64,000 nucleotides of DNA from a virus (IMGVR_UViG_3300045581_000900:32001-96000), one strand, 5' to 3'. Positions 10,974 through 60,665 are shown, numbered from the stretch's first letter. A program made the numbers and translations. Notes: generated from the sequence alone by a model not told the origin.

Positions 10974-11900
10974 TCAGACAAACGTTACCTTAGCGAGACC
11001 GTTCGTGTGACCGAACGAGCCGCCTTGCGTGTTATAGGCGAAGTACTCAAGCATGTAGGCCTCACGACGGATATACATCGTGGTGGGCTCAAGCTCGTAG
11101 TTCTTGCCGATGAACTTCGGCGAGGCGAACATGTACAACACGTCGTTCGGGACGAGGTTCCGCTTGATCGTGACGATCCAGCGGCAGTTGAGGAAGTTGG
11201 TCTCCGCCCAACCGTTCTTGATGATGTCCTGCGAGAAGTCACCACCCATCTCGTCGCGACCGAACTTGAGGAGTTCCTTGATCGTGATGTTATTCACGAG
11301 GCAGGTCTCAACCTCAAAGTGGCTGGGAGTCGAGGGCATAACCTTCAGGGCATCAACAATCGTCTCGCGGGTGATACCGCCCGAGATCGTGACGTTCTGC
11401 GGAACGCCCGAAAGCGGGTTGTTGGTGTCAACCGTACCGACAGCGGCGTCCATCGCGGTGATGAACTTCGAGTCCTCTTCGGCGAGCATGTCCTTGATCA
11501 TGTTGTCGCTGAGCACCTGACGGATGTCGATGACATACGTGCGGAGTTCGTCGACGTCCTTCACAGCACGGGGCGACACGATCCGGTCAAACATGACGCG
11601 GTAACGCGGGCCACGGATGTAGAAGTTGATCGGGAGCGTCGCAAACGGAAGCGACACAGCCGCCGGGGAATCGGGCTCCTTGTCGACCACCTTCACCGGC
11701 TTGTCCGTGTCAACCTGACGATCGAGTTCGTCGTTGGTGATGGTCAGCGGCGGGATGATCCGACGGTAGAACCCGTCTTCACGCATCTTGGTACGCGTGA
11801 AGTCGTTAACCGCATCAATGGCCTGCTTCTGCATGCCGGGAGTGTCAAGCTGCTCAAAGAGCGTTTCATTGAGCAACTGGATTTCTTGCTGAGTGGGCAT
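10974..11900 (-). CDS. Major capsid protein (HK97-like, probable)
   Basis: ~308 aa from ATG 11900; strong codon bias; order protease-scaffold-decoration-MCP; F.RRIIPP and DML.EED..FI segments typical of large-phage MCPs. Confidence 0.75.
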   Translation of the reverse strand: MPTQQEIQLLNETLFEQLDTPGMQKQAIDAVNDFTRTKMREDGFYRRIIPPLTITNDELDRQVDTDKPVKVVDKEPDSPAAVSLPFATLPINFYIRGPRYRVMFDRIVSPRAVKDVDELRTYVIDIRQVLSDNMIKDMLAEEDSKFITAMDAAVGTVDTNNPLSGVPQNVTISGGITRETIVDALKVMPSTPSHFEVETCLVNNITIKELLKFGRDEMGGDFSQDIIKNGWAETNFLNCRWIVTIKRNLVPNDVLYMFASPKFIGKNYELEPTTMYIRREAYMLEYFAYNTQGGSFGHTNGLAKVTFV

Positions 11901-11904
11901 TTTA

Positions 11905-11920
11905 AAGACCTCCATGTCTT
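11905..11920 (-). promoter_or_regulatory. RBS hairpin with AUGGAG hexaloop
   Basis: AAGAC-ATGGAG-GTCTT upstream of the MCP ATG. Confidence 0.65.
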
Positions 11921-12530: not shown

Positions 12531-12962
12531 TCAGGTAGTGGGCGGATTCAAACCAAGGCCTGTGAACAGCTTCACGTCAGAGGCCTTGAGGCGACCATCG
12601 CGGGCACCCACATACCCGCTCGTCAAACTTGCTGAAGGGTCATAGCTGGCAGACTTCTGCTGCCCAACCGGCGTACCAAGACGGGCCATTTCGGCGGCGT
12701 TCTTGTGGCTGGCGAGCTTGACCACGAGTTCCATCGTGCGAACCGGGTCGTGAAGGGCCTTTTCAAGGGCTTCCTTCTGGTGCGACTCGATACGCTCGTG
12801 CTCGACGCAGGCTTGCACAGCGGCCGGAATAAGGGCCGCAAGCTTTTCAGCCTGCTCTTCTTGATTCTTAATCACGCTGGCAGCCTTGGTCAGAGCCGCA
12901 TCGGAAAAACCGATGTAGTCGATGACCTTCTGCACGAGCGTGTTTGTGTTATTTGCGGGCAT
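12531..12962 (-). CDS. Head assembly/scaffold-like helical protein
   Basis: 143 aa, several KxA motifs. Confidence 0.5.
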   Translation of the reverse strand: MPANNTNTLVQKVIDYIGFSDAALTKAASVIKNQEEQAEKLAALIPAAVQACVEHERIESHQKEALEKALHDPVRTMELVVKLASHKNAAEMARLGTPVGQQKSASYDPSASLTSGYVGARDGRLKASDVKLFTGLGLNPPTT

Positions 12963-12980: not shown

Positions 12981-14348
<1,368 letters not shown>

Positions 14349-14394: not shown

Positions 14395-15852
14395 TCATGT
14401 GACATAATTTTGCAGTACACACTGGTTTGCTGTCAACAAATTATTCCGGTATTTTTCGCTCGCAGCCGCGAAGGCAGCAATCTTATACAAAGCGTAGTGC
14501 TTGGCAAGAGCCGTTTCCGCGTTACTACAAGCCCGTTTTTCGTGTTGTAAGGGAGCCGGTTCAAGATTACGAATCGCAGCCAAATAGGCCCGCTTTTCAA
14601 CCTGTGGCGTTAACATGCTGTGCGTCGCGGCGGCCTTCTCGGCCCAGAGGCGTACGGCTGTTGATGCGTGGTCAGCGGGATAGAACTTGTTGTTCTCCAG
14701 CAACGAAACGATGTCCTCTGCAGCGGCCAGTTTTGAAAAAATGTTCGGCAACGCATTGGTTACCGCGTCTACGAGTTCAACATTAGCAGATTTAACTGTT
14801 AACGCCAAGAAGTCCCGCACCGGCAAGACTACGCCAGCATCAGCCAGCCCACGTAAAACCTCCGCCATTTTAGCAAACGGACAGCCATTTACATCAAGGG
14901 CTGGTTGTACTTCTGGGTGGGACGCGATCGTTAACTGTGTCCAGCCGATCGGCCGACCGCTTAACTCCTGCTCGGCCTGCACCAGTTGCTGCAGGGCGTT
15001 CATCTGCTGGGCGGCTCGTTTAGACGCAAAAGCAGCGTCCAGCCCGAACGGCATGGTCACGCCCATCTGCTCGGCAAGCTCGGCCCCGGAAATAACAGCA
15101 TTACTCGCGGCCTTCTCCAGTCGGCCCGAAACGTAGGCAATACGGTCGGCCGGGCGGAATACATAGGAGATGTCGAAGAACGAGGGGTTGGGGTTGTCAG
15201 CGTGCAGAACGTGCCCGTCTGACATCACCCGCCCGATATTGTGCTTTAAACCGCCGGCTTTGCAGTGGCCGCCGTTCTCGATTGAGTCGCAGTATTCGGC
15301 ACGGGTCCGGGCCGTGTTGCCGCAGGCGGAGCACTTATCAAACGGAATCTTGCAGGCCATCGAAACAGGGATGTCCTGATCGTTCGACAGCCGCTCCATC
15401 TCCTTGTCGGCGAGCAGTCCGCCGTTTCGCTCGGCGGCTTCCTTGCTGCCGTTCAACGCACAGATCAGTTCGATCCGCTTCATCGGCTCGTTGTAGTACG
15501 ACGCTTTTACAAGCCCGAAGCTCTTCGCGGGGTTCTTGTTGGCGTGGTCCCGATAAAACCGGGCAAACTTTTCAAACGTGTGGTGATACTTGCTGCAGCA
15601 GTCGCGGGTAAAGCCGTCGCCGTTACGGTTCGGGCCGTAATCCTCGGTCGCCCCGATGGCGATAAGGTGGACCGGAATTTCATCCTTGGCGAACTTGATC
15701 GTCGAGGCCTTCTCAACGAACTCAGCACCGGCACGCTTCACAAACGCTTGTTTGTCGCTGCCGATGATACCGCGGCTGGAAACTTTGATAAGGGCGGCAA
15801 CCGGCTCGCTAAAGTCTTGCGAGTGCGGCTGGATGACTTTAATCATGCTCAT
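14395..15852 (-). CDS. Prohead (maturation) serine protease with Zn-finger insertion
   Basis: NRNGDGF...RDH...VSMAC..CSAC...FFDISYVFRPAD pattern of HK97/herpes-fold prohead proteases. Confidence 0.75.
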   Translation of the reverse strand: MSMIKVIQPHSQDFSEPVAALIKVSSRGIIGSDKQAFVKRAGAEFVEKASTIKFAKDEIPVHLIAIGATEDYGPNRNGDGFTRDCCSKYHHTFEKFARFYRDHANKNPAKSFGLVKASYYNEPMKRIELICALNGSKEAAERNGGLLADKEMERLSNDQDIPVSMACKIPFDKCSACGNTARTRAEYCDSIENGGHCKAGGLKHNIGRVMSDGHVLHADNPNPSFFDISYVFRPADRIAYVSGRLEKAASNAVISGAELAEQMGVTMPFGLDAAFASKRAAQQMNALQQLVQAEQELSGRPIGWTQLTIASHPEVQPALDVNGCPFAKMAEVLRGLADAGVVLPVRDFLALTVKSANVELVDAVTNALPNIFSKLAAAEDIVSLLENNKFYPADHASTAVRLWAEKAAATHSMLTPQVEKRAYLAAIRNLEPAPLQHEKRACSNAETALAKHYALYKIAAFAAASEKYRNNLLTANQCVLQNYVT

Positions 15853-15860
15853 GGTTATGC

Positions 15861-17654
15861 CTACATAAGTCGGTTGGTGCGGATGTCGCGTGTCTCGGCC
15901 TGAATCTTGTCCCGCTCAGCCCGGAGTTTGTCCATCTCCAGAATCTGCTTCACGTCAAAATCAGCCAGACTGCCAGCTTCGAGCCGCTTTCGCAGCACGG
16001 ACTGAATCATGCCCGGCGAATCGACAAGGTTCGGGGCCAACTCGGAAATCTCGTTAAACGCCATGGCCACGTCTTGCGGATCATAGCCCGAGATTACAGG
16101 GTCATTAAGCACAAGGTCGTGCAGGACGCCCTTGGCCCGAATCGTTTTCAATGCCTGCTCGTGATCGGCATCGGTGAGCGATTGAAAGTGTTCTTTTGTC
16201 TTGTCTTTCTTGCCGTCACCATGCAGCATCTTGCCGATCTGCCCAGTCACGCCTTCTTGGCTCGCACCGATTAAACCGCCGACCATTTTCACTGGCGTTG
16301 TAATACCAATTTTGTTGTCTTTCAGTATCGAGTTTAATCCGCCAGACGTGTCCTTCGCGACTTGTTTTCCTCCGGCGAGTAACGCGTTGATCGGGTCCTT
16401 GGTAGCCTGACTTATCTGTGTAAACGGATTTTTTGGCTCCGGGACGCTATCGCGGGTTGCTCTTCCGTCGGCGACTCTTTTTTCATGCTCCGCAATGCTG
16501 TCGTCCCACGGTTTAAAAAGCTCGTCGACATATTCTTCGGTGCTTTGTTCGCCACGAGCCGCTTCTTCGCGGTCCAGTTTTTTGTCGATGGACTTGGTGC
16601 TGGTCAGCGGCGGCGAATCCTTTGAGCCAGCGAAATCCCGGGCGGTGAACGACGTGCGACCGGCGAACGGGTCGGTAGGCATTAAGCCGCCTGTTAAGTA
16701 CGGTTCTTGCAGAGCTTTGCGGGTTTTTGCGGCCTGCACGCGGGCGTCAAGTCCGCCGGCTTCTTTTAACGTCAGTGGTTCGTCAGCGGGATTGTGCAAG
16801 ATAGAGCCTGTAATAAACTCTGGTGCTTCTTTCTTACCAAATCCCGCATCAGCTTTTTTTGTGGCTACCCGGCTCTGTGCCTCGTTGTAGTGCTCAACGG
16901 TGCCAATCACGTCTTCCACAAGCTTGTACAGCGGGTCATGCCCGTAGTGGTTCTTGCCGCTGTCTGCCTGCTTCGTAAAGTGCGGGTACACCGCGGCGAT
17001 CTTTTGCAGGACGCTCACGCCGCTGGGACCAAGCCGCAAGCCGACCTCACGCAGGGCGTCTCCAAACGGCATATTGCCGGGCGTGCGGAAATACGTATTT
17101 AACTCTTCAAGGCTGTTCGCGGCTTTCTGATATGCCGCGGCGGCTTGCCGCCGCGTTTCTTCTGCCGCACGCAGTGCGGCATTTTTTTCGCTTTGGGCCC
17201 GCATTACAGCCGCGTGCTCGTCACGCGGTGGCGGGGTCCATGTCTTCTCGGGCAGAGCCACACCGGCACTCGCGGCCTTCTGCATCGCGTCCCGGCGGCG
17301 GTTTAAAAAGCCAGACGGCGGTACTGCATACTCGGTCGAGACGAGTTCGGACCGTTTCAGTTCCGCAGATGTCTTCACGTTCTCGGGGTACAGGGCTTCA
17401 AGAATCACGCGAACGTCAGCCAACGGAAACTCAGCCGCCTTTTCCAGCGTGTTTTCGCCGCCTTCTCGCTGCTTTGTCGTCCGGCCGGTGTTATAGGCAT
17501 GCACCATCAGGTTAACGTGCCCGGACGGAATATTGGCGTCGCTGGCACTCTTGATAATCGCGTCATTGGGGCTCATGCCTTCGTTAACAAGCGAGGCGGC
17601 CTTCTCAATGGCGGAGATTAGCTTCCGCTCGGCTTCCTTGGTGAGTGTACGCAT
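15861..17654 (-). CDS. Putative internal head protein, KxA-rich
   Basis: 597 aa; about 12 KxA motifs in the N-terminal half. Confidence 0.55.
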   Translation of the reverse strand: MRTLTKEAERKLISAIEKAASLVNEGMSPNDAIIKSASDANIPSGHVNLMVHAYNTGRTTKQREGGENTLEKAAEFPLADVRVILEALYPENVKTSAELKRSELVSTEYAVPPSGFLNRRRDAMQKAASAGVALPEKTWTPPPRDEHAAVMRAQSEKNAALRAAEETRRQAAAAYQKAANSLEELNTYFRTPGNMPFGDALREVGLRLGPSGVSVLQKIAAVYPHFTKQADSGKNHYGHDPLYKLVEDVIGTVEHYNEAQSRVATKKADAGFGKKEAPEFITGSILHNPADEPLTLKEAGGLDARVQAAKTRKALQEPYLTGGLMPTDPFAGRTSFTARDFAGSKDSPPLTSTKSIDKKLDREEAARGEQSTEEYVDELFKPWDDSIAEHEKRVADGRATRDSVPEPKNPFTQISQATKDPINALLAGGKQVAKDTSGGLNSILKDNKIGITTPVKMVGGLIGASQEGVTGQIGKMLHGDGKKDKTKEHFQSLTDADHEQALKTIRAKGVLHDLVLNDPVISGYDPQDVAMAFNEISELAPNLVDSPGMIQSVLRKRLEAGSLADFDVKQILEMDKLRAERDKIQAETRDIRTNRLM

Positions 17655-18990: not shown

Positions 18991-21384
18991 TTAAATGTTA
19001 GCGGAAGGCCCAAGATCGACATCGCCGGCCGACTCCTCGGGGAACGGCTCGATGGTCTTCTGCTTGAGGAAGAGGATCACGTCGCCCAACATCTCGAACG
19101 CGTTGCGGAGCGAATCTTCCAGTTCCGGCATATCGGCCTTGCCGTAGCGATCGGCGAACCGGTCGCCATGCCAATAGAACATGAACAGGATGCGGCCCAG
19201 CTTGTCGAGACCCTTGGTAAGCTCACCCATGTAGCGGTCCACAAGGCCGTCATCCCGCACGGCCCGAAGCATGGTGCCGATCATGGCGGTGTCAAACACC
19301 TCACGCTGGCCAGTTTGGGCCGCCTGCATCACCTGCTGCACGGCACCCTGATCCAGTTGCGTGTTGGGGTTGTACACGCTGCGATCCGTCTGGCTAGCCG
19401 ACATACCCGGCACGGGCACACCGACGTCGATGCCAAGCTGCGTGGGGACGCTCGTCCCCATGATGGTCTCGCCGCCCATGACCGGCCCCGGGTCTGCCGG
19501 GGCTGTGGGGGCGTTCTGGATCATCATCGGCGAGCCATACGGGTTTGCGTACTTCACGTGGCAGGCAAACTTCCGCTTAGCCTTGGCACGCGAAAGAATT
19601 TCGCGTGCATTTTTTTCGCGAAGGCCGTGCTTGGCGACCAGCGAAACAAGGGCTTGCTTCTCCGAAAGCTCCTTCTCGATCAGTTGTTGCTTCGGGCTGT
19701 GAATCTCGACGGCCGTGCCGTTGTGATACACCGTCAGGCTCGACAGCTTCTGCATGATTACAAGCTGGGCGTCAGCCAGATTGCCCGGCATCAGCGGCGG
19801 ATTGTCGCTCTCGCCGCAGCCGCAGGAGCCCTGACCGCCCTCAGCCGCGTCGGCCACATCGTCTTCGCCCGGAGCACACTTTAAGAGCTTATACGTGCTC
19901 GGCACGAAGATGTCGCCCATGCTGGAGCGGATCGAGCCGCCGCCCTTGGCGTTTAAATGAATTCTGACGCCGTCGCGGTACTTGTCGTAGTTCAGCGGGT
20001 CGGTGTAGCAGCAGGGCGAAATTGAGCCCTTGGGCGGGAACTTGGAGTGATCCTCCATGTGAACTTCGTAGGCATTTCCGCCGAACTCAGTCTCGCCGTA
20101 CTCACGAATCACGCGGAACGGCACCGTGGTATCGCCCGACTTGCAAATCGCCATGTACCGGCCGTTTTTGGAGAGACTGGTGGCGTCAGGCAGGCCGTTG
20201 AGCCATGTATCAAATTCGTCGCCTTCCACGCGGGAGAAGCAGAATACGTGGTCGGCACGGGTGTTGATCCACTCAGGCCTGCCTTCGGTACGGACGACGG
20301 TCACAAAGTCAGACCGCTTGGCGGGCCCTTGTGGATATACCGCGACGTAGCACTTTTCGATCTCGCCCGGCTTGACTAGCACCATGTACAGGCCGCTCTG
20401 GGTGGGATTGAACAGTTTTTGCTCAACCTGAATCTGGTACGGCACCGAGACGTTATCCCGATCCCGCTGGTCGAGAATAAGCACGCCATCCCGCAGCAGC
20501 TTTTCTTGGTCTTCCTCGGTATGCCCGGGCGGAAGAGCCGTCTGCGTCGTGGCGTCGTACGTAATGACTTTCAGCGTCTCTTTCGCCTTGGGCGTCTCCG
20601 GGGCGTCAGAAAGCACGCTGGCGATCTTAGTCGCGTTCTGGCGGGCACTGGCGGCACTGATAGCCTCGCTAATAACGTCTAAACCGTGGAATTCGTCAAT
20701 CGCCTGAGCCAGATGCGGGGCGTACTGGCAGGTTTTAACAAGAGCCGAAATCGTATCCATTCCGGCCTGCTTGAGAAACGCCTTGAGGTTCAGCTTGTGG
20801 CCGAGTTCTTCAAACGCCAGCTTCGTGTTCATCGTGGCGGTCTTGGCCAGTGTCGGCATCACCGCGGTCATCATCTCCTTCAGCGTCGGTTGGGCCGAGC
20901 CGAACTTGGCGGGGCTGCGGGAAAGCTGCGTAAAATCAGGCTGCCGCTGGCCGAACTGGGTGAGATTCTTATCAATGCCGCTGCCCAGAATGCTGGGCTT
21001 GCGGTTGACGAGATAGTTGACCCAGTTTTCCTTGAGCGGGACGAACATATCCTGATTCTTGATATACAGGAGTTCGTGGCCTTTGAGGTCGCCGTTCAGG
21101 AAGAAAACCGGGGCATACAGCCACATGGAGCCGACCTTGAACGCAAAAACACCGACAGCCTTGGTGTTTTCCCGATTGCGGTCGAGAAGTTGAAAGCCGA
21201 TCTCGTGGTCCAAAAGCTTCGGAGCAGAATCCCGAAGATAGGCGTGGGCCAGATTAGAAAAAGCCTGTTCAAACGCCACGTCGTCACCGCGGCCACCAAT
21301 CTCGGCGGTTTTAGTGCGGTCGTGAGACCGGACGACGTTTAACCAATGCTTCCACGAGGCTTCTTTTGACTTTTTATTAAACAC
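18991..21384 (-). CDS. Large putative virion protein
   Basis: Start reassigned to GTG 21384 below the RBS hairpin; KEA, KTA, KQA, KIA, KYA motifs. Confidence 0.6.
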   Translation of the reverse strand: MFNKKSKEASWKHWLNVVRSHDRTKTAEIGGRGDDVAFEQAFSNLAHAYLRDSAPKLLDHEIGFQLLDRNRENTKAVGVFAFKVGSMWLYAPVFFLNGDLKGHELLYIKNQDMFVPLKENWVNYLVNRKPSILGSGIDKNLTQFGQRQPDFTQLSRSPAKFGSAQPTLKEMMTAVMPTLAKTATMNTKLAFEELGHKLNLKAFLKQAGMDTISALVKTCQYAPHLAQAIDEFHGLDVISEAISAASARQNATKIASVLSDAPETPKAKETLKVITYDATTQTALPPGHTEEDQEKLLRDGVLILDQRDRDNVSVPYQIQVEQKLFNPTQSGLYMVLVKPGEIEKCYVAVYPQGPAKRSDFVTVVRTEGRPEWINTRADHVFCFSRVEGDEFDTWLNGLPDATSLSKNGRYMAICKSGDTTVPFRVIREYGETEFGGNAYEVHMEDHSKFPPKGSISPCCYTDPLNYDKYRDGVRIHLNAKGGGSIRSSMGDIFVPSTYKLLKCAPGEDDVADAAEGGQGSCGCGESDNPPLMPGNLADAQLVIMQKLSSLTVYHNGTAVEIHSPKQQLIEKELSEKQALVSLVAKHGLREKNAREILSRAKAKRKFACHVKYANPYGSPMMIQNAPTAPADPGPVMGGETIMGTSVPTQLGIDVGVPVPGMSASQTDRSVYNPNTQLDQGAVQQVMQAAQTGQREVFDTAMIGTMLRAVRDDGLVDRYMGELTKGLDKLGRILFMFYWHGDRFADRYGKADMPELEDSLRNAFEMLGDVILFLKQKTIEPFPEESAGDVDLGPSANI

Positions 21385-21387
21385 AGA

Positions 21388-21403
21388 GCCACCTCCATGC
21401 GGC
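21388..21403 (-). promoter_or_regulatory. RBS hairpin with AUGGAG hexaloop
   Basis: GCCGC-ATGGAG-GTGGC. Confidence 0.6.
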
Positions 21404-21429
21404 AGATATTGAACCAATCCCTTATCAAT

Positions 21430-33507: not shown

Positions 33508-34323
33508 TCATGTTTGCGGGACAAGTACGTAGGGCCTGCCGTTGATCATAATCTTGCCGCCAATTTTAAGTCCAGCGTCCTTTGTTAATGGATACCGGCC
33601 TTTGCGTTTGCCGTACAGCTTTACCATCTCTTCAATGTCGCCGGCACGTGGGGCTGTGCAGTTCGGGTCGTAGTACGGGGCCATTAAATTCCCTGCGTTT
33701 AAATGCCCCAGCCCCAACGCGTGCCCGAGTTCGTGACACATGACCGCTACGGCCATATTAAACGACCAGTCTTCTGCCTCGTCGTACATCTGATCAAGCT
33801 GCATGTTTTCTGCCACGCCGCACGGAAGTTCGCTCCACGCCAGCGTGCCACCGCGTGCGTCGAGATTGTGCTTTCTGCCCGAGCCAGAGCGGGCGTAGAT
33901 ATTGGCGTGCTCTTTCTTCTCCACGCGGGTCGGCTCGATCGCACACACCTCAGCCCACTGCGAAAACGCAATATCGTACGCCTCTTTAATCTGCTCGTCC
34001 GACATGTTCGGCAGCTTGATGTCGTGGTAGTACGTGATCTTCTGCATGGGCCACTTGCAGGGGTCCAAGCCTGCGGCGGTCAGATTAAAATCAGGCAGGC
34101 CGCAACGAAGCTTCCGAATACGATGGGCGGTCTTCTCATTGACGTCGCCGCTCTCCTCCAGCCCGTTAAACTTCTGATATTCGCGGACCGCTTTTTGCAG
34201 TTCGGCCCCCTTCAATTTTTTAACAGCCGCCCACGATTTGTCGCCAAAGTACCCATAGTCGTACAAGAACTTTAAAACGTCATTGATCGGGAGTACGCTG
34301 TTTAATGCCGGCTTCCGTGCCAT
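33508..34323 (-). CDS. Matrixin-like (M10) metallopeptidase with PG-binding-like N-domain
   Basis: AVREYQKFNGL..SG, RCGLPD cysteine switch, HELGHALGLGH, LMAP Met-turn. Confidence 0.88.
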   Translation of the reverse strand: MARKPALNSVLPINDVLKFLYDYGYFGDKSWAAVKKLKGAELQKAVREYQKFNGLEESGDVNEKTAHRIRKLRCGLPDFNLTAAGLDPCKWPMQKITYYHDIKLPNMSDEQIKEAYDIAFSQWAEVCAIEPTRVEKKEHANIYARSGSGRKHNLDARGGTLAWSELPCGVAENMQLDQMYDEAEDWSFNMAVAVMCHELGHALGLGHLNAGNLMAPYYDPNCTAPRAGDIEEMVKLYGKRKGRYPLTKDAGLKIGGKIMINGRPYVLVPQT

Positions 34324-35118: not shown

Positions 35119-36093
35119 TTAATTTCTATTAAACATTGCCGGCACGATTGCGTGCATCATACCACCCCAAAGTCCCATGTCTTGTAACTTTTGTTGGCCC
35201 AGCGGTGTTAAACCGGCCATTGCCGACAACGCTCGGCCCGCGATGTTTGCCGTCGCCAATCCGACGCCCGCAGACGCAATACCGCGAATCACGTCGACAG
35301 GCCGAATAATCGGAGAACGTTGGGCCGTGCTGATGCCTGTCATTAAGCCAGTTGTCGCTGCGGCGTAAGCCGGGGGCGTAAACTGGCTCCCACCAGTATA
35401 CATTCCGCGTTGTACATCTTGCCATGCCGCCTGATTAAATTGCGGCACGGACACCGTCGGAGCAAACAGACTCGCGTTATTAAATTGTGCGAAGCCGACT
35501 TTTTCGTCAGGGGCGGTCGTGGGCGTCGTGTTCGGCGTCACCCATGATTTCCAGAAGCCGATGTCTGGTCGCGTGCGGTAGGTGGCATAGGCGTTGTTTA
35601 AACCAATTAACCCGCCGCCAGCGAGGCCCATCAGGCCGAGATTCTTCCGCAGCCGACCACGCTCCAGATAGCGTTCTGGAAACAGGTTCTCTGCCAGTGC
35701 TCCCGCCCCGTAACCGACACCGCCAAGCATCAGCCCAGAGACGATCGCGTTGGATAACGGCGTCGGGCCGCCCAGCATTTTGTGGCCAAAATCGAACGCG
35801 TGACTGATGCCGGGAATCGCCGCAGATTTAATCAAAATTTCGCGGTCCCAGTCCGGCAGGGTTTCTCGGCTTCTGAGCACGACACAGCGACCATTATCGA
35901 CGGCCAGCTTGGAGAGCGGCTTCGGTCGGTAGAGCACGAGCACGTCGTCGACCGTGTCCCATGTGGCTGTGGTGCCGGCTAAGTCACCGGTCTGGGCAGC
36001 GATCTTGAAATACAGATGCTGCAGGTGCATGGCCTGCGGCAGCAATTCAGCGACGCGGTTTGGCACCTGCTGCCAGTCTTGAAGCGTGGTCAT
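35119..36093 (-). CDS. Gly-zipper virion cargo-like protein
   Basis: KIA/KLA/KSA motifs, Gly-rich helices. Confidence 0.6.
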   Translation of the reverse strand: MTTLQDWQQVPNRVAELLPQAMHLQHLYFKIAAQTGDLAGTTATWDTVDDVLVLYRPKPLSKLAVDNGRCVVLRSRETLPDWDREILIKSAAIPGISHAFDFGHKMLGGPTPLSNAIVSGLMLGGVGYGAGALAENLFPERYLERGRLRKNLGLMGLAGGGLIGLNNAYATYRTRPDIGFWKSWVTPNTTPTTAPDEKVGFAQFNNASLFAPTVSVPQFNQAAWQDVQRGMYTGGSQFTPPAYAAATTGLMTGISTAQRSPIIRPVDVIRGIASAGVGLATANIAGRALSAMAGLTPLGQQKLQDMGLWGGMMHAIVPAMFNRN

Positions 36094-37835
36094 TTCGGCC
36101 TCCCCAACGCCATGTTTAAAAACTGGTCGCCGTAGTTGTGAATGGCTTGTTCGGCGAAGTCGGGTTGCTCCATTTCGCCCCGCATGGCTTTCATGGCAAG
36201 TTGGTAGCGGTACTGCGGGCTTAACGCCGCCATGTACCGCTGATGATTCTGCCGAGCGTTGATCATGAAATCGCCGCGGCGTTTCACCTCCATCAACTGG
36301 TTCTGAATGTTTTCGAACACCGGCTTGTTGTAATCATATTTAATCGGCTGCCGCAGGCTGTACATGTTGCGAAGTTGATTCATATACACGTTCTCGGCCG
36401 CCTTCACGGTCGCCGGAATAGCCGTCGGGTCCATGTGCAGCCGAAAGTTCGTCGGCGTATGCGTGACACCCTTGTGGTACGGCTTCGGGTCGTCAATCCG
36501 CCAATCGTGCGGCGATTGTTCCATTAATCGCCGCAAAATCTGCGTCTTTTGTTCGTACTGTTTGTTGTCCGAGTGCTTTTTAGCCGCCAGCAGCTTTTGA
36601 ATGATGGCTTTATCAGCGGCAATAGCGGCTTTTTCTATTTCTTTGATTTTTTCGTAGTAGTGGGGGTCTTCGGACAGATGATCTTTGGCAATTTCTTTGG
36701 CGATTTGATCATTACTTGTGTGTTCGTGCTCATGCTTGGCTCCTTCGGCTAACGCGGCTGGAGAAAATTCCTGATCGGGTAAATTATCGGCTTCTCCGCC
36801 CGGTAACAGGTCTTTTTGTCCCGAGTGGGAAAGTTCGGCAGCCGCGGCTTTGTTAATAGCCGGAGCTAAGAGTTTTTTAATGTCCGGGCCCATGTAGTCG
36901 TCGCCTTCGGGCAGGCCGTGCGACAACGTAACCACTGCGTCAGAACCGACAGTGGCATTAAAGTTTCCGGGCTTGAGTTTGTGCTTCAGCAGTTCCAGAT
37001 AATGCTCGTGCTGCCAGCCTTCTCGCGGGTCGTTACCGAGCGGCCGAAACGCTGTCGGCCTAATCTTGACGCCGAGTTCTTCAAACATCTCCCGGGCGGC
37101 GGCTTGGGCCGGAGTTTCGCCCGCTTCGATGCCGCCGCCCATAAACCGCCGTTTGCCGATATTCTGCGGCCATTTTGAGTTGTTGAGCGTTTCCATCAAA
37201 TACTGGTTTTTATACGGCATTACGACGCGGACGCGGGGCTGCGGCTGATCGCTGGCCGCTTTTCTCACCTCGTTATCCTGCAGCACTTTCTTGCGGCGAA
37301 CAGCGACGGTGATGTGGAACTGATGGTCGCCGTTCATGAGCGGCGAGAGCCCGTAGCTCTTGCGTAACGCGGCCAGTTCAGGGCTGGAGACTTGAATGAC
37401 CCAGACTTTGCTGATACTGCCGGCCTTATTAATGCTTATTTCCTTCATGCTCCCCAGTCGATAGGAGAACATGTGGCCGCGTTCGTTGATCTTGTCAACA
37501 CCGATCTGCTCCACCTCGTCAGCCTTCATGACCGAGATGTGGGCGTTGAGCACGTCTGCAGCAACGTTCGGCACGCTCCACACGCCACTCGTCGGCAATT
37601 CGGCTCCGGGAACCGACATGGCGTCGAATACGCCGCGGACAAGGGCGTTCGGCACGGAGAGCAGCAGCCAGCCGCTTTTGGCTAAATACAGCCGGCCGAC
37701 AAGCGGGTAGTTCGTCGCGGCCTGCTTGTTGCCGCGGTACAGCCAGCCAAACGCGTGGCCGGCTTTATATTCGGGCGTTTCGGCGTAAAGCTCGGGTCGC
37801 CACGTTCGTTGATCTAAGACTGAGAAGCCATCCAT
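36090..37835 (-). CDS. Multidomain polyprotein: 2H-phosphoesterase-like + Nudix + DUF5661-like + two further domains
   Basis: HISV...HITV pair; GGGIEAGETPAQAAAREMFEELG Nudix box; EHEHT..IAKEIAKDHLSEDPHYY; domains separated by KQA/KAA. Confidence 0.75.
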   Translation of the reverse strand: MDGFSVLDQRTWRPELYAETPEYKAGHAFGWLYRGNKQAATNYPLVGRLYLAKSGWLLLSVPNALVRGVFDAMSVPGAELPTSGVWSVPNVAADVLNAHISVMKADEVEQIGVDKINERGHMFSYRLGSMKEISINKAGSISKVWVIQVSSPELAALRKSYGLSPLMNGDHQFHITVAVRRKKVLQDNEVRKAASDQPQPRVRVVMPYKNQYLMETLNNSKWPQNIGKRRFMGGGIEAGETPAQAAAREMFEELGVKIRPTAFRPLGNDPREGWQHEHYLELLKHKLKPGNFNATVGSDAVVTLSHGLPEGDDYMGPDIKKLLAPAINKAAAAELSHSGQKDLLPGGEADNLPDQEFSPAALAEGAKHEHEHTSNDQIAKEIAKDHLSEDPHYYEKIKEIEKAAIAADKAIIQKLLAAKKHSDNKQYEQKTQILRRLMEQSPHDWRIDDPKPYHKGVTHTPTNFRLHMDPTAIPATVKAAENVYMNQLRNMYSLRQPIKYDYNKPVFENIQNQLMEVKRRGDFMINARQNHQRYMAALSPQYRYQLAMKAMRGEMEQPDFAEQAIHNYGDQFLNMALGRPK

Positions 37836-39269: not shown

Positions 39270-40304
39270 TCAGAGCACTTTCGCCGCGATCAGACACCCG
39301 CGGGCGACGGCATGCAGCGGATCGTTGGCGTGCCGCACTTCTTTGACCGGCAGCGGAAACTCGTTCTCTTCGAGCTTCTTGGCAAACAAGTCGACGAAGC
39401 CTTTGGCCTGACTCGTGCCGCCGGCGATCACGACCGGCAGCGGGTTCTTGAACTTGGGCAGGAGCTTGTGCCCCTTCATCGCCGCGGCCAGATTCTTGGT
39501 GGTGTAGTCGATGAGCCGTTCGTAGTAGGAACTCACCGCGGCTAAGACAACATTATCGTTCGGCTGGCCGATCGTGAACTCACCGTTCTCTTTCTCGGCC
39601 TGCACAACGCTGTCCGGCTCGCCCACGGCAATGGCACTCATGCGGTCAATCCAGTCGCCCGATTTTGTCGTCGAAAACATGACGGTCGGCTCGCCGTTGA
39701 GCATGACGCAGCAGTTCACCATGCCCGCTCCGCACGACAACGCCACGCCGGTGTATTCGTCACCCTCCAGTTCCGAGTAGCACAGGGCCTCGGCCTCGTT
39801 GATCGCCCGGGCGTTGTAGCCGCACGAGGCCAGCACGGTCTTGACGACGTCTTCGTGGTAGCCGACGTCGAACTCGTCGTCCTCTTGGTCGACAGGCTGG
39901 GCGGGCACGCAGAACACCAGCTTCTCGTCCTGCTCGACTGCCTTGCCGCAAACCTGCTTGAGGATGTACGCCAAGACACGCTTGGCTTCTTTCTCTTTCG
40001 AACTCACGACGCCGCGGTACATGGGCCGCTTGGCCGACTCGTTCCGCTCGATAGCTTTCTCGATGGCGTCTTGGCCCAGAATGATGAACGTGCCGTCGGT
40101 ATCTTTGACGAAGACTTTGCCCTGCAGTCCCTTCTCAATCATCTTCGTCGCCACCGGAGTCGTGGGCTTGATACAGTAGAACGCGTCGCGGAATTCTTTG
40201 TAAGTCGTGTATTCCGTCTTGTCGTCGCTGGTAAAGCTGACGGGGCCTTCGGTGTCACTGGCCAGCACGATATACGAGGTTCCGACGTCGAGTCCTTTTG
40301 CCAT
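39270..40304 (-). CDS. Actin-like ATPase (MreB/ParM/MamK superfamily)
   Basis: GLDVGTS (phosphate 1), VFCVPA, INEAEA (connect 1), SCGAGMVN (phosphate 2), IAGGTS (adenosine), DPLHAVARG (connect 2). Confidence 0.85.
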   Translation of the reverse strand: MAKGLDVGTSYIVLASDTEGPVSFTSDDKTEYTTYKEFRDAFYCIKPTTPVATKMIEKGLQGKVFVKDTDGTFIILGQDAIEKAIERNESAKRPMYRGVVSSKEKEAKRVLAYILKQVCGKAVEQDEKLVFCVPAQPVDQEDDEFDVGYHEDVVKTVLASCGYNARAINEAEALCYSELEGDEYTGVALSCGAGMVNCCVMLNGEPTVMFSTTKSGDWIDRMSAIAVGEPDSVVQAEKENGEFTIGQPNDNVVLAAVSSYYERLIDYTTKNLAAAMKGHKLLPKFKNPLPVVIAGGTSQAKGFVDLFAKKLEENEFPLPVKEVRHANDPLHAVARGCLIAAKVL

Positions 40305-42147: not shown

Positions 42148-42220
42148 CTGCCCGGGTAGGACTCGAACCTACAACCCCAGCATTAACAGTGCCGTGCTCT
42201 GCCAGTTGAGCTACCGGGCA
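42148..42220 (-). tRNA. trnN: tRNA-Asn(GTT), CCA not encoded
   Basis: TGCCCGG acceptor; AGCTCAACTGGCAGAGC D-arm; CGGCA-CTGTTAA-TGCTG anticodon arm; GTAGG-TTCGAGT-CCTAC T-arm. Confidence 0.95.
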
Positions 42221-48088: not shown

Positions 48089-49969
48089 TCAGGCGGGTTG
48101 TTCCCGGTTTTCCGAGCCGATGTCGCGGAGCAGATTGCGAAAGGATTCGTTCAACTGTTCTTTCTCGGCCGTGAGGCGTTCGAGCACCTCATCAGCCGTG
48201 CGGTGCCGCTGTTTGCCGAAGAGTTTCCGGCCGAGCACGCCCGGCTCTTCAGAAGCGTTTAAATATCTTTGCACGGCGACGTTCTTGAGTTCCTCGGGCA
48301 GGCCGGCATGACTGTCGAACCGCAGGCCACGACCGCGGGCCTGCTGGAGCCGAGCCTCGTTCCAGTGGGGGTCCAGAAGCTGGATCAAACTCGTGCCCTT
48401 GGTCGAGATGCCCTCCGCGGCGGCCGGGCCTAAGAGCAACGCCCGGAGCTTGCCCTCGTTATAGTCTTTCAGGGCCTGCTGGCGTTGCTTTGTGGGAATG
48501 CTGCCGTGAAAAATCCCATAAGGAATCTGGTTCTTCTCCAGTGCCGCAGCATACGGGTTGATGCCGGAGTCGACGAAGTTGGAATAGATAATCGCCTTCT
48601 TGCGAGGGTCTTCGTCGAGCACTTTCTTGAGGTTGGTGTACGCCGTCTGCAGCTTGCCCGACTGCTCGAAGGCCTTGAGCGGGTTCTTGTCGGCCCGGAA
48701 CGTCTGCGTCGACAGCCCAGCCTGCCGCATGCCGTTCAAAAAGCTGTTTAAACGACTAAGCTCGTCCTTCGAGAGCGGGAACTCGCGGTCCAGTTTCCAG
48801 AGAAAGCCCGGCGGAATCTTCGTGCGGATCGCCTTGTGAATCTTCTCTTGTTCGGGCGTGAGCGGCGTACGGATGATCTCTTCGTTGACGTTCACGCCCT
48901 CGGGAGTCTTGCTGGGCTGATAATCGACTTTGCCCTTGAGCAGTTCCCGCAGTTCTGCCTCGTTCTTAATAAACGGCCGCACGCCGGGCTTCACGCCTCG
49001 CAGCCAGCCCATCCAGCCGGGCTTCACCTTCTTGTAGCCCACATAGCGTTCGGCAAAGCTCTCGGGGTCGATGCTCTTGCCCTGCAGCATCGAGACCAAC
49101 GGGGCCAAGTCTGTGGGCGAATTCGTGATCGGCGTGCCGGTTAAGAGCATTACGCGTTTGGCATTGCGGGCCGCCTGCATGGCCGCTTGGGTCATCGCCG
49201 AGTTGGGATTTCTAAGCCTCGCCGCCTCGTCCATGATCAGCGTGTCGGGCTGGGACTTGAACGGCTTGCCCATGCCGAGTCCTGTGTAGCTCATGACCTC
49301 GGGATTGGAGTTGCGGGTGAACTTCTTGATCTCTTTCTCGAAGTTCCCCCGCAGACTCGCCGGCACCACGGCCGCATAGCTCCCGCCATGGAGTTTCCGG
49401 GCCGCTTCCGCCGCGGCTATAGACGACAGAGATTTCCCCGAGCCCAAGCCGTGATAGACGAGTAATCGGGGATTCTCGCCCGTGATTTTGTCGGCAATAC
49501 GCTGCTGGTGGTCTTGTAGCTGGACGTCAGGGCTTAATTCCGCCTGTTTCTGCCGGTCGGCCAGATGCTGCTGAATCGCCTTGTTTTTATAGGCTTCCAG
49601 CATGTCTACGACACCATTTCGCGACTCGCTAGGGACCAAATTCGCAGGGTCGATGCCCCAGTTGCGTAACGCCCAGCCGCGTCTGGCTGTGGGGTTTTTC
49701 ACAAACGGGCCGCCATGGCGAGCCTTGAAGCTCAGCCAGCGTTTCATCTGCCGCTCGTCCTCGTCGGGAATCCTGCGGCCCGATGCGTAACGTTTGTACC
49801 ACTGGGCCCAGCCCTTCGGGTCATGCTGGCTGATCCATTCGGGCTTCCACTCCCCCAGACTGGCTAAACGCGGACCTTGGCCGCGGTACAACGAGTCGTA
49901 CACGCCCAGACTTTCCATCTGTTCGGGCGTGTAGTCCGGCGTGAATTTCGCAGCAAGGTCGTCGGGCAT
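48089..49969 (-). CDS. SNF2-like SF2 helicase with an N-terminal extra domain
   Basis: HGLGSGKS, MDEAA, LTGTP, EGIST, QARGRGLR; N-domain ends at KQA. Confidence 0.85.
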   Translation of the reverse strand: MPDDLAAKFTPDYTPEQMESLGVYDSLYRGQGPRLASLGEWKPEWISQHDPKGWAQWYKRYASGRRIPDEDERQMKRWLSFKARHGGPFVKNPTARRGWALRNWGIDPANLVPSESRNGVVDMLEAYKNKAIQQHLADRQKQAELSPDVQLQDHQQRIADKITGENPRLLVYHGLGSGKSLSSIAAAEAARKLHGGSYAAVVPASLRGNFEKEIKKFTRNSNPEVMSYTGLGMGKPFKSQPDTLIMDEAARLRNPNSAMTQAAMQAARNAKRVMLLTGTPITNSPTDLAPLVSMLQGKSIDPESFAERYVGYKKVKPGWMGWLRGVKPGVRPFIKNEAELRELLKGKVDYQPSKTPEGVNVNEEIIRTPLTPEQEKIHKAIRTKIPPGFLWKLDREFPLSKDELSRLNSFLNGMRQAGLSTQTFRADKNPLKAFEQSGKLQTAYTNLKKVLDEDPRKKAIIYSNFVDSGINPYAAALEKNQIPYGIFHGSIPTKQRQQALKDYNEGKLRALLLGPAAAEGISTKGTSLIQLLDPHWNEARLQQARGRGLRFDSHAGLPEELKNVAVQRYLNASEEPGVLGRKLFGKQRHRTADEVLERLTAEKEQLNESFRNLLRDIGSENREQPA

Positions 49970-50863: not shown

Positions 50864-51478
50864 TTAGGATTTCCCGAAACAGACGCACCAGTACAGCCGG
50901 CCGCGGGAGTCTTTCCGTGCTCCGCAGCCGATCTTGTTAAAACCAGTGCTCATGATATTACGCCGATGCCCCGGCGACCAGAGCCAACTTTTCATGACAC
51001 TCTCGGGCGTCTCTTGGCCCCATGCGATGTTCTCGCCGGCCCGAGAGAACCCTAGTTGCATGAGCTTTCGCATCGACGAGTGCACCATGCGGCGATTTTC
51101 CGCCATCCAATTGGCGTGCTCTTGAGCGTAGTTTGTTAATTTTTCATCGACCTGTAACGGCGGCAGATTCCACGCCCAACTGGCTTTCTCCCGGGCGGTG
51201 TTGTGCAGGGCGGCAAGCTGGTCGGTGTCGGCGTCAACGGTGTTGCGAAGCAGGGGTAGACTCTGAAGATTGAGCTTGCGGCGAAATTTATCATTTTCGC
51301 GAGACTTGAGCAGGTACATCTGCTGGTATTCGCTGGCGAGCTTCCGCTGACCGTCCAGTTCGTCGTAAAGCTCCAGTAAGACCTCCGCGGCCCTGTCATG
51401 CGGTCCGCCGATCACAGCCTCGGAGAACCGGCGAAGCTCCGCGGCTAAGAGGGCGATGTCCTGCTGCTCGTACCTCAT
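50864..51478 (-). CDS. CAP/SCP domain protein
   Basis: HN..R, AQEHANWMA..H, GENIAWG, WLWSPGHRRNI. Confidence 0.9.
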   Translation of the reverse strand: MRYEQQDIALLAAELRRFSEAVIGGPHDRAAEVLLELYDELDGQRKLASEYQQMYLLKSRENDKFRRKLNLQSLPLLRNTVDADTDQLAALHNTAREKASWAWNLPPLQVDEKLTNYAQEHANWMAENRRMVHSSMRKLMQLGFSRAGENIAWGQETPESVMKSWLWSPGHRRNIMSTGFNKIGCGARKDSRGRLYWCVCFGKS

Positions 51479-52323
51479 GGCTGCACCTCGGCGTCGGCCA
51501 AGGCGATCTCGGAGCCGGTCGTGCTCTGGGCCTTGAGAGCCAGTTCATAGTTCTCGATCTGCCGGTGCACCCAGTCGTGATACATGCTCACACGGGTAAA
51601 CGCGGCCTCGTCGCCATAGGTGCCGTCGGTCTTCTTGTCGGCGGCGAGTAAAAACGAATTAATCCCAGCGAGCTTGTCGCCAATAAACATGCCGCCGCCT
51701 GAATCCCCCGGCGTAATCACAAACTCCAGCGGCATCCGACCTTTGCCGGCCGTGGGCGAGCAGAAGAGAACCGCGTCCGCACGACCGTCGATCACGTTGT
51801 GCCCGGCACGCTTGCGTTGGTCCGATGTCTCGGCGTTCGCTCCGCTGGAAAACGTGCCCTGAATCCCGTAGCCGGCAATCGTGATCGCCTTTCCCATCTC
51901 GTCCTGCTGGTCGTAGAGCGGCGTGTAAAAATCGAGCTTGAAGTCCGTGCCGCTGTAGCCTAGAGCAAGGTCGTGCCAGCCGACTTTTTCTGACACATAC
52001 TCGCGATGAATGATGACGGTGCTGAGCGGATATTCCGTGCCGTCGTCCTTGAGAATCTTTTGGCCGTACGTGCCCTCGACGACATGGGCCGCGGTGAGAA
52101 TCCAGTTGGGCCGGATAATCACCGCCGAGCCGTGCTGCTCGTGTTCTTTCTTCGGGCAGTCGGGGTTCGTGCACTTGATCTTGGCGATGATTTTCACCAC
52201 GCCCGGAAACTGCTGGCCGAACTCGACGTACTTGCTGTCGGGGGTATTCGGGTCTCGCGTGCCGGCCTGTACCGCCTCAGCACCAATAGCTAAAAAAAAC
52301 AGGAGTGATGTAAAGAGTTTCAT
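51475..52323 (-). CDS. Secreted trypsin-like (S1) serine protease
   Basis: Signal peptide; LTAAH, DLAL, GDSGG. Confidence 0.92.
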   Translation of the reverse strand: MKLFTSLLFFLAIGAEAVQAGTRDPNTPDSKYVEFGQQFPGVVKIIAKIKCTNPDCPKKEHEQHGSAVIIRPNWILTAAHVVEGTYGQKILKDDGTEYPLSTVIIHREYVSEKVGWHDLALGYSGTDFKLDFYTPLYDQQDEMGKAITIAGYGIQGTFSSGANAETSDQRKRAGHNVIDGRADAVLFCSPTAGKGRMPLEFVITPGDSGGGMFIGDKLAGINSFLLAADKKTDGTYGDEAAFTRVSMYHDWVHRQIENYELALKAQSTTGSEIALADAEVQP

Positions 52324-57749: not shown

Positions 57750-58724
57750 TTACTCCTCTGCTGTAGCCGTGCGGGCCGGAGCCTTCTCGTCGTCTTTTTC
57801 AGCAGACTCGTCGTCGTCCTGCCGGGCCTTGGCCGCGGGCTTCTTTTTCTTCTTGGGGGCTCGCTCGGAGACGTACTTGCCACCAGCCCCGGCGGATTCA
57901 GCAAGGCCATATAGCTTGCCAGCAGCCAGACCAGCCAGCGGACCCATGGGCCCAGCGAGACTGCCCAGATAACTGCCCATGCCCGCCGGAAGTACCCGCT
58001 GCCGTTCATCGAGAATCTGATTGAGCTTCTTGGGGTCATTGCGATAGGCCTTTCGCAGAGAATCCTCGCTGTTAAAGTTCGCGGCGGCTTCTTGATACAG
58101 CATGATCGGCGTCAGGGCCCGCGAGAGCATGTACGCGTCCCGGGTCAGGCCGCCACCCTGCCGCTTGAGCCAGCCGGTCACGCCCTTGCCCTTGGGCACC
58201 GGGCGGGAATTAAAGTCGATGGCGTGGCCGAGTTCGTGCGTGAGCGTGGCGGGCGAATTGCCATATAAATGCGTCGTGTCGCTGAACGGATTGTAGTGCG
58301 AGCCCCGCATGGAATTCATCGTCAACGCCGTGAGCGGATACGACGCCAAGCCTAAGCCTTTGCCCAGAATGCTCGTTCTGGGGTTGCTCATGATCCGGGG
58401 AATATCCCGGGTGAGTCGCGTGCCGCCCAAGACCACGGTATGGTTCTTCAGTTCCTGCGGATTGGCCCGCTCCATGTCTTGGGCAAGCTGCTGGAGAGCC
58501 ATCGCCCGGCGGTCCTTCTTGCTGATCTCCGCCTCGTTCCAGCCGCCCGTGGCACCCTCCCAGTCCGTCGGGTTCACGTGGCTCTTGAGTGTTAAGAGCG
58601 GCAGGCCCGAGAGCACGCCGCCCGCTTGGCCGACCGTCGAGGCCAACGCCCGGCTGGGCAGCCCCGCTCGTTCAACGTTGATAGCCTGCTTGACCAGCTT
58701 TCCAAACGCGACAGCGTGCGACAT
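57750..58724 (-). CDS. Zn-metallopeptidase-like (HExxH...E) cargo protein
   Basis: MSHAVAFGKLVKQA leader; THELGHA...QEAAA. Confidence 0.65.
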   Translation of the reverse strand: MSHAVAFGKLVKQAINVERAGLPSRALASTVGQAGGVLSGLPLLTLKSHVNPTDWEGATGGWNEAEISKKDRRAMALQQLAQDMERANPQELKNHTVVLGGTRLTRDIPRIMSNPRTSILGKGLGLASYPLTALTMNSMRGSHYNPFSDTTHLYGNSPATLTHELGHAIDFNSRPVPKGKGVTGWLKRQGGGLTRDAYMLSRALTPIMLYQEAAANFNSEDSLRKAYRNDPKKLNQILDERQRVLPAGMGSYLGSLAGPMGPLAGLAAGKLYGLAESAGAGGKYVSERAPKKKKKPAAKARQDDDESAEKDDEKAPARTATAEE

Positions 58725-60595: not shown

Positions 60596-60665
60596 AGCGG
60601 ATTTGGTTCCCAAGCTGAATGTGCCTTATATCTTCGCAAATGAGGTGCCGGGGGTAAAGGGCTCT

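Follow-up and report, generated by a model that had tools for sequence, protein, structure and literature searches.

Processing of head and internal proteins by a prohead protease is well established in T4 and phiKZ, and the enzymes of this superfamily recognise short motifs: L/I-x-E in T4, S/A/G-x-E in phiKZ, A-x-E in SPN3US and V/L-x-A|S in herpesviruses. Among phage enzymes, Acb1-type 2H phosphodiesterases and Nudix hydrolases act on immune nucleotide signals, which they degrade, or on RNA ends, which they process. In the giant phage SPN3US, prediction of substrates from the motif works, and the protease gp245 cleaves itself; of the 14 sites mapped, 13 fall within the N-terminal propeptides of eight head proteins, and a cut at the remaining one frees the protease of its C-terminal propeptide (PMC10052503). 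The polyvalent proteins of phages and conjugative elements are a described class (Iyer, Burroughs, Anand, de Souza and Aravind 2017, PMC5512222), and it has also been proposed in general terms that jumbo phages carry counter-nucleotide enzymes, with 2H and Nudix proteins as recognised counter-nucleotide or RNA-end tools (PMC7824862). Here we analyse 64,000 nucleotides (hereafter the window), bases 32001-96000 of the 111,939-bp IMG/VR viral contig IMGVR_UViG_3300045581_000900 (CheckV completeness 55%), and within it the minus-strand open reading frame (ORF) 36090-37835, which encodes a multi-enzyme protein of 581 amino acids (aa). We read this protein, with a probability of about 0.6, as a cargo polyprotein of the polyvalent type that is processed by a prohead protease at the tripeptide K-x-A.

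The source is an uncultivated jumbo phage of ~200 kb, in which nearly all genes of the window lie on the minus strand. Relatives with head proteins 64-91% identical are phages of ~195-205 kb, some with terminal repeats. The nearest cultured relatives, Salmonella phage Arash and three Vibrio phages, are distant, their capsid protein being ~28% and their protease domain 40% identical; a megablast search of the sequence against phages gave no match.

The locus has likenesses with, and departures from, each of the described systems. In common with T4 gp21, IPI-III and Alt are the protease fold, a short motif of P3-x-P1 shape, leaders that end at the motif and a site-dense scaffold. T4 carries enzymes in the head and injects them, and the modules described below would be the counterpart here; T4 cargo, however, loses its capsid-targeting sequence at L/I-x-E, whereas here the P1 residue would be Ala, the P3 residue Lys, and several internal junctions would be cut. 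Large capsids, many internal or ejection proteins and a virion RNA polymerase are points of likeness with phiKZ (gp175), 201phi2-1 and SPN3US, but those phages are not described as freeing several folded enzymes from a single chain, their motif is chemically different, and the clade has no detectable sequence relation to these giant phages. Polyvalent proteins likewise join 2H, Nudix, SNF2, P-loop kinase and zincin domains in one polypeptide, shuffle them among relatives and are predicted to be delivered with the DNA; the focal ORF, with at least two effector domains and mosaic architectures among its relatives, is built in the same way. Iyer et al. envisaged autoprocessing by an embedded MPTase domain or no processing, whereas a junction tripeptide code shared with head substrates points here to the prohead protease.

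The focal protein consists of a leader, a 2H phosphoesterase, a Nudix hydrolase, a DUF5661 module and two further modules, 4 and 5. It holds exactly five K-x-A motifs (KQA at residue 37, and KAA at 192, 329, 402 and 478), all of them at module junctions, and the layout with K-x-A at every boundary that had been proposed in the original prediction is thus confirmed, with Pfam matches to 2H-SAK, NUDIX and DUF5661. The first spans aa 98-183 (E 1e-10, 42.4 bits against a cut-off of 27), the second aa 230-291 (E 4e-10, 40.4 bits against 21.1), with the Nudix box readable in the translation, and the third aa 365-402 (E 4e-8, above cut-off). Among 74 homologues, H99, S101, H174 and T176 of the intact 2H motifs HISV (99-102) and HITV (174-177) are nearly invariant; in the DUF5661 module E369 and D385 are invariant and E371, H372 and H386 nearly so. 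The two intact H-x-T/S motifs and the intact Nudix box are points of likeness with Acb1-type 2H phosphodiesterases and phage Nudix enzymes, a link to Acb1 being possible at the level of the 2H fold family. A structure search with the AlphaFold model placed the Nudix fold at 194-330, exactly between two KAA sites, with Z up to 11.7 (3r03, residues 194-327). Nudix matches also dominated Foldseek and VIA searches with the model, which gave no structural assignment for modules 3-5 and the 2H fold, and the sole match in a tblastn search of the focal protein against phages was the DUF5661 stretch of Virus Rctr197k.

The AlphaFold model has a pLDDT of 74.6 and only three internal segments below 50 (28-41, 183-195 and 330-340); sites 37, 192 and 329 fall in them or at their edge. 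A rough binomial estimate for three of five sites landing in disordered segments is ~0.004. The expected overlay of motifs and modelled boundaries therefore held for these three sites and for the Nudix fold, and less clearly for sites 4 and 5, which show only moderate dips in pLDDT. The signal in the focal ORF is positional, not numerical, and the placement is far from chance. A leader that ends at the motif, within the disordered segment 28-41, is a feature of protease-processed internal head proteins, and its site is well kept: K37 is present in 65 of 68 homologues, A39 in 64, and the residue that would be P1' is A or S in 66.

The focal protein has more than 400 homologues, which range from 360 to 1007 aa and vary in architecture: some lack the Nudix module and others have extra P-loop kinase modules, and across the focal and sister modular families relatives gain or lose Nudix, P-loop kinase, Cys-rich and zincin modules. 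In close relatives all full-length members keep K-x-[AS] at the five junctions, and insertions and deletions begin and end at K-x-[AS]. In one relative (L053) a Cys-rich mini-module and a second module, each ending in K-x-A, are inserted directly after the first KAA, and module 4 is deleted exactly from site 4 to site 5; in another (L055) module 4 has moved to the N-terminal side of the Nudix module, to which it is joined by HKVAA. In a set of 120 members, K-x-A is found within 3 residues of 38% of the internal homology breakpoints, against 7% of random positions, while the control motifs A-x-K, E-x-A and L-x-A are near random; like all family statistics given here (breakpoints, conservation, avoidance), these figures derive from related sequences and are effect sizes, not independent probabilities. 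The codons at the junction sites vary among homologues, and selection therefore acts on the protein, not on the DNA; a recombination signal at the DNA level was ruled out on the same ground.

Inside the modules the motif is avoided. In the five module cores of 74 homologues 19 K-x-A were observed where ~212 were expected (ratio 0.09), and K-x-S had a ratio of 0.10, against 0.63-1.98 for thirteen control patterns; these ratios are partly circular, the cores having been defined on a reference without internal sites. Because the cores came from this site-free reference, the test was repeated with a matched control, in which only positions where a homologue differs from the reference were counted and the same masking was applied to every motif. 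The ratio for K-x-A then rose from 0.09 to 0.24, at about the 5th percentile of 326 motifs, with A-x-K at 1.25 and R-x-A at 1.15.

A second modular protein repeats the pattern. In it, KQA at aa 141-143 (nucleotides 49541-49549) parts an N-domain from an SNF2 helicase. Four relatives carry the SNF2-family N-domain at the C-terminus instead, joined by K-x-[AS], and in other relatives an ADP-ribosyltransferase (ART)-like or a large zincin-containing module is inserted between two K-x-[AS]. Of the breakpoints in 121 homologues of this family, 31% lie within 3 aa of K-x-A, against 3% of random positions. In the helicase core the K-x-A ratio is 0.35, owing mostly to one near-invariant KKA, and the K-x-S ratio 0.09; most controls range from 0.87 to 2.2, although K-x-G is also low (0.33). 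Modules are exchanged between families as well, since some SNF2 members carry Nudix or DUF6321. The alignments thus mark K-x-[AS] as a junction motif that is avoided inside modules in two independent multi-enzyme families. The same arrangement had been proposed for four other ORFs, of which the SNF2 protein conforms across genomes. The DUF6321 protein does so by eye: its orthologues, of 401-798 aa, came from a genome search (a pattern scan for its relatives retrieved none), and in a six-genome alignment K-x-[AS] flanks conserved blocks. For ORFs 53974-55866 and 44675-46534 the claim reduces to K-x-A motifs between low-complexity blocks; the former has no detectable orthologue in five complete relatives, and matches to the latter were too short to align.

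Two inserts in SNF2 relatives deserve mention, in G001:C1:47950-50319 (L064-L065) and G004:C1:164473-167757. One begins ...FYHGT..., a start that we take to resemble ADP-ribosyltransferase-type domains; another is large and has the zincin motif HELGHH.

The proteins of the head module carry the motif in excess. When all spaced dipeptides with gaps of 0 to 3 were compared with shuffles in five ORFs between 12531 and 21417, K-x-A came out as the top pattern, with 54 observed against 21.6 expected (z 7.0; runner-up z <=3.7). Local shuffles in windows of 20 or 40 residues gave the same picture (~22 expected, z 7.7, 0 of 1000 reaching 54), and eleven control patterns, among them A-x-K, KA, AK, K-x-x-A, R-x-A, K-x-G, K-x-S, K-x-V, K-x-L and E-x-A, were flat; the mirror and shifted motifs, together with the local shuffles, led us to reject a composition artefact. 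The rest of the genome has no K-x-A enrichment (~140 observed, ~160 expected). A density of the motif in head proteins and in the protease itself (14 observed, 4.6 expected) had been foreseen correctly; of the proposed K-x-A/S specificity, the K-x-A part is backed by this enrichment, but K-x-S, at 15 observed against 11, is not significantly enriched in head proteins.

In 39-44 orthologues per head protein the K and A of the motif are conserved at 0.75-0.98, against 0.31-0.77 for other K and A and 0.43-0.83 for the middle residue. The contrast is strongest in the fast-evolving 597-aa protein (K 0.85 against 0.31, A 0.87 against 0.50) and weakest in the 808-aa protein at the portal position, where K-x-A clusters in the N-terminal 270 aa and in the C-terminal part. 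The latter protein has weak similarity to the structural protein gp218 of Arash, and found nothing in a PDB sequence search, a protein atlas or tblastn against phages. The major capsid protein has a single K-x-A, KQA at aa 30-32 (nucleotides 11820-11828), a putative maturation site that all 37 orthologues keep (100%); in the alignment it is matched by KEA (27-29) of the capsid protein of Arash. In Arash gp218-224, K-x-A is again the top pattern (37 observed, 17.9 expected), and both the capsid site and the site after the protease domain align position for position with those of this phage. Judged from these alignments, K-x-A behaves like a selected short linear motif in the head proteins of ~40 related phages and Arash.

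In two complete relatives (G001 and G005) the K-x-A-enriched proteins are the same head orthologues and one more, of ~400 aa (G001:C1:154051-155256, L069; G005:C1:114269-115453, L077). With 15-16 K-x-A (z 6-7.5), or ~1 per 25 residues, it is the extreme of the clade; it is absent from the present, incomplete contig, and is probably a core or scaffold protein meant for degradation.

The candidate for the cutting enzyme is encoded within the same module, between the portal-position gene and the scaffold-like and capsid genes, in synteny with Arash gp218-226. No Pfam protease matched it, a PDB sequence search returned nothing, and its only family assignment was PHROG 2774, of unknown function; the family is very large (2625 representative clusters), and one homologue, from a Gordonia phage, is annotated as a capsid maturation protease. 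The AlphaFold model has a pLDDT of 86.6. In a structure search independent of Foldseek, in which residues ~18-249 were aligned, it matched the varicella-zoster virus (VZV) protease (Z 9.4), T4 gp21 (Z 8.9, 5jbl) and the human cytomegalovirus (HCMV) protease (Z 6.9), with unrelated structures at <=5.1; Foldseek was weak, and there the HCMV protease had the highest probability. The candidate catalytic residues S164, in a 'VSM' motif, and H103 are invariant in 70 diverse homologues, and H62 is present in 65 of them. The assignment of a prohead protease to this ORF thus gained an assemblin or T4 gp21 fold and conserved candidate residues. The model's only internal segment with pLDDT below 50 is the linker at 248-252, where LEKAA|S sits, and eight more K-x-A follow in the C-terminal domain.

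Among described enzymes the herpesvirus assemblins (UL26 / UL80) are closest in structure, VZV being the best match, and Ala at P1 with Ser or Ala at P1' is common to the herpesvirus consensus, as generally given, and to the specificity proposed here. The herpesvirus protease-scaffold fusion also has the same order of parts: protease domain, linker site and a scaffold-like helical domain with more sites. The differences are a hydrophobic P3 in herpesviruses against Lys here, the bacterial host range of the present virus and a cluster of four Cys after its candidate catalytic Ser. This cluster (C174, C177, C188 and C197, within residues 172-201) is invariant and in part readable in Arash gp222; by its sequence it looks like a zinc-ribbon-type insertion in an assemblin-fold protease. 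Some homologues (P0241, P0246, P0290 and others) reach 830-1300 aa, and in them the query is split into 2-3 matched stretches around residue 170, near the Ser, which suggests large insertions, possibly inteins, or duplications.

Evidence from virions comes from Arash. Its helicase gp217 (472 aa) shares 34% identity (E 4e-74) with the SNF2 ORF over residues 147-618 of the latter, a stretch that starts just after the KQA. In the virion proteome gp217 was found at 100% coverage with 1148 spectra, like the portal-position and capsid proteins, and RNA polymerase was the most abundant virion protein, its subunits being abundant (PMC10585845); the lineage therefore packages enzymes. A homologue of the focal polyprotein was not found in Arash by tblastn against phages.

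From these observations we propose the following mechanism. In it, K-x-A would be the recognition sequence of the protease of assemblin or T4 gp21 fold, and K-x-S a less certain one. Lys would occupy P3 and Ala P1, the cut would fall after the Ala, and E would be favoured at P4 and A or S at P1'. Extrapolating from T4, phiKZ and herpesviruses, we would expect the enzyme to trim the 32-residue N-terminus of the capsid protein, cut its own linker between protease and scaffold parts and chop the scaffold-like proteins at many sites. The focal chain would enter the prohead in one piece and be cut there at the K-x-A junctions; the freed enzymes would stay in the capsid until delivery together with the DNA, and would probably act on nucleotide-derived signals or RNA ends. 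On the whole, the interpretation offered in the original prediction is supported in part. The wider claim, that a mostly uncultivated clade of ~200-kb phages loads its capsids with true polyproteins, each a leader followed by swappable counter-defence enzymes that an assemblin-like protease frees at K-x-[AS], falls a little short of even odds in our judgement.

Several observations weigh against this mechanism, beside the relatedness of the sequences and the circularity of the first avoidance test. In this clade both cleavage and packaging are read from sequences and structural models. A hidden Markov model (HMM) of the focal leader, run against six proteomes, found its own orthologues only; T4 has a capsid-targeting sequence, whereas no shared leader or targeting tag was detected here, and K-x-A is only weakly enriched genome-wide in the first 45 residues (26 observed, 19.9 expected). 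In Arash virions the scaffold-like gp223 and the protease gp222 were covered to 85-100% by mass spectrometry (MS), which neither shows nor excludes cleavage (PMC10585845). The large RNA polymerase subunit does not avoid K-x-A (12 observed against 10.3 here, 61 against 60.5 pooled) although RNA polymerase is a major virion component in Arash, which leaves two possibilities: some packaged proteins do not meet the protease, or folding shields buried sites. The focal ORF has about as many K-x-A as shuffles predict (5 observed, 4.3 expected), and a count of K-x-[AS] against shuffles, by which the cargo idea was to be checked, came out at chance in all five supposed cargo ORFs. One could therefore ascribe the whole pattern to chance or composition, for example to Lys- and Ala-rich helices, but the z of 7.7 against local shuffles, the flat A-x-K, KA, AK and K-x-x-A, the recurrence of junction placement and breakpoint statistics in two families and that of the head-protein motif in distant relatives leave this hardly credible. 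A passive role of the motif is better placed, though still unlikely: K-x-[AS] could serve polyvalent proteins that are never cut as a linker between modules or as a docking motif, with the head enrichment reflecting binding, e.g. to scaffold or protease. Some polyvalent or virion proteins are indeed delivered uncut (N4 virion RNA polymerase, ArdC, TraC1; PMC5512222), and site 4 of the focal protein lies inside a predicted helix. Such a linker leaves unexplained the 4- to 10-fold shortage of K-x-A and K-x-S within modules, the 15-16 sites of the ~400-aa protein, the conserved capsid site 30 residues in and the site in the disordered linker of the protease. We favour cleavage because exposure to a protease of this kind predicts both selection of the motif at junctions and its avoidance inside modules, which a passive linker does not.

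The cut might also be made by another enzyme, since the window encodes three further proteases, a zincin-like, a trypsin-like (S1) and an M10 enzyme, two of them conserved in relatives and the zincin with a KQA leader of its own; a host enzyme would serve as well. Zincin modules, one with HELGHH, are embedded in the G004 versions of the SNF2 and DUF6321 proteins, and the proposal of Iyer et al. that MPTase domains autoprocess polyvalent proteins (PMC5512222) therefore stays alive. Trypsin-like enzymes do cut after Lys, but a cut of that type needs no conserved Ala two residues further on, and the N-terminus of the trypsin-like protein, signal-peptide-like by eye, would place it outside the cytoplasm. 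The motif, moreover, is most concentrated in the head-assembly proteins beside the assemblin-fold protease, and its P3-x-P1 shape, with a small residue at P1', fits the motifs commonly ascribed to the assemblin and gp21 superfamily. Another cutter seems slightly less probable to us than the uncut linker. Somewhat lower again we place the possibility that head processing at K-x-A is real but unrelated, and that the focal protein is a multi-domain enzyme of the usual kind, which works in the cytoplasm and does not enter the capsid. Its gene does lie ~15 kb from the head module, among genes of mixed function (actin-like protein, glycosyltransferase), and the lack of a shared leader in the six proteomes fits such an enzyme too. 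Yet every junction keeps the same motif, with the same A/S preference at P1', and the rest of the protein avoids it, which argues for exposure to a K-x-[AS]-specific activity, and the helicase module of the sister modular protein is a virion protein in Arash. Prohead-protease processing of the focal protein remains our preferred reading.

The K-x-A specificity proposed for a large uncultivated clade, the use of K-x-A as a junction code of shuffled modules and the avoidance signature all appear to be new. If the reading is right, tailed phages of this kind would have their own version of the polyprotein strategy used by RNA viruses, with one maturation protease that builds the capsid and unpacks an enzyme payload. 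It would explain the fusion and cassette shuffling of conflict enzymes, as a code at every junction would let modules shuffle freely between cargo genes, and would tie the polyvalent-protein concept to head maturation; Ala at P1 would bring phage prohead proteases closer to the herpesvirus assemblins. For hundreds of uncultivated jumbo phages, the proteins injected along with the DNA could then be predicted from sequence by the rule 'K-x-[AS] at junctions, avoided elsewhere'. What the hypothesis says about head proteins can already be put to the test, because the cultured Arash has the same K-x-A signature.

Table 1 Coordinates of the features discussed, counted from the first base of the window
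Feature	Position	Strand	Remarks
Leader / putative propeptide	37719..37835	-	aa 1-39, ends KQA, then A or S
2H phosphoesterase module	37254..37718	-	aa 40-194, ends KAA 192-194
Nudix hydrolase module	36843..37253	-	aa 195-331, ends KAA 329-331
DUF5661 module	36624..36842	-	aa 332-404, ends KAA 402-404
Unnamed module 4	36396..36623	-	aa 405-480, ends KAA 478-480
Unnamed helical module 5	36093..36395	-	aa 481-581; AlphaFold helices 483-577; conserved in family
Second modular protein (N-domain, KQA, SNF2 helicase)	48089..49969	-	Pfam SNF2 and Helicase_C
Third modular protein, with DUF6321	58763-60613	-	58763-60595 in the original prediction; Pfam DUF6321, E 1e-21
Major capsid protein	10974..11915	-	matches phrog_2522 and Arash gp226 major capsid protein
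Small K-x-A-rich head protein	12531..12962	-	K-x-A 6 observed vs 1.7 expected; enrichment kept in 41 orthologues
Scaffold-like head protein	12981..14348	-	K-x-A 11 observed vs 5.5 expected; motif K conserved 0.90 vs 0.62 for other K
Prohead protease candidate	14395..15852	-	catalytic domain ~aa 46-246, LEKAA|S linker 247-250, K-x-A-rich helical C-terminal domain
Fast-evolving 597-aa head protein	15861..17654	-	K-x-A 12 observed vs 5.4 expected
808-aa portal-position head protein	18991..21417	-	K-x-A 11 observed vs 4.4 expected
M10 matrixin-like metalloprotease	33508..34323	-	Pfam Peptidase_M10, E 5e-19, and PG_binding_1
Trypsin-like serine protease	51475..52323	-	Pfam Trypsin, E 9e-16; hydrophobic N-terminus, signal-peptide-like by eye
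Zincin-like peptidase	57750..58724	-	HELGH; KQA leader aa 12-14; weak Pfam Peptidase_M43 match

The two other proteases that are conserved in relatives are the trypsin-like and the M10 enzymes, for which roles in lysis, entry or processing are possible; in orthologues of the M10 protease K-x-A is mildly enriched (21 observed, 10.8 expected).

Directly downstream of the focal gene, ORF 35119-36093 on the minus strand overlaps its stop codon by ATGA. The product has three K-x-A in the first 91 residues (1.0 expected), varies from 327 to 442 aa among relatives and may be another cargo protein.

Further genes of the window, all on the minus strand, complete the picture. The actin-like protein (39270-40304, 344 aa) has a full-length match to Pfam Volactin (E 8.5e-62) and is 77-87% identical in five complete relatives, and a tRNA-Asn (GTT) gene lies at 42148-42220. 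Upstream of the head genes, 7372-8196 encodes a MoxR-like AAA_5 ATPase (Pfam E 1.5e-12), which is present in G005 and was not found in the other complete relatives. The 657-aa protein of 21430-23403 matches RNA polymerase Rpb1 domain 5 (C-terminal half of beta-prime) and is 27% identical to Arash gp216, an RNA polymerase subunit given as beta in the record and as beta-prime in the paper. Its neighbour at 24367-28803 encodes a protein of 1478 aa that is 78-89% conserved in relatives.

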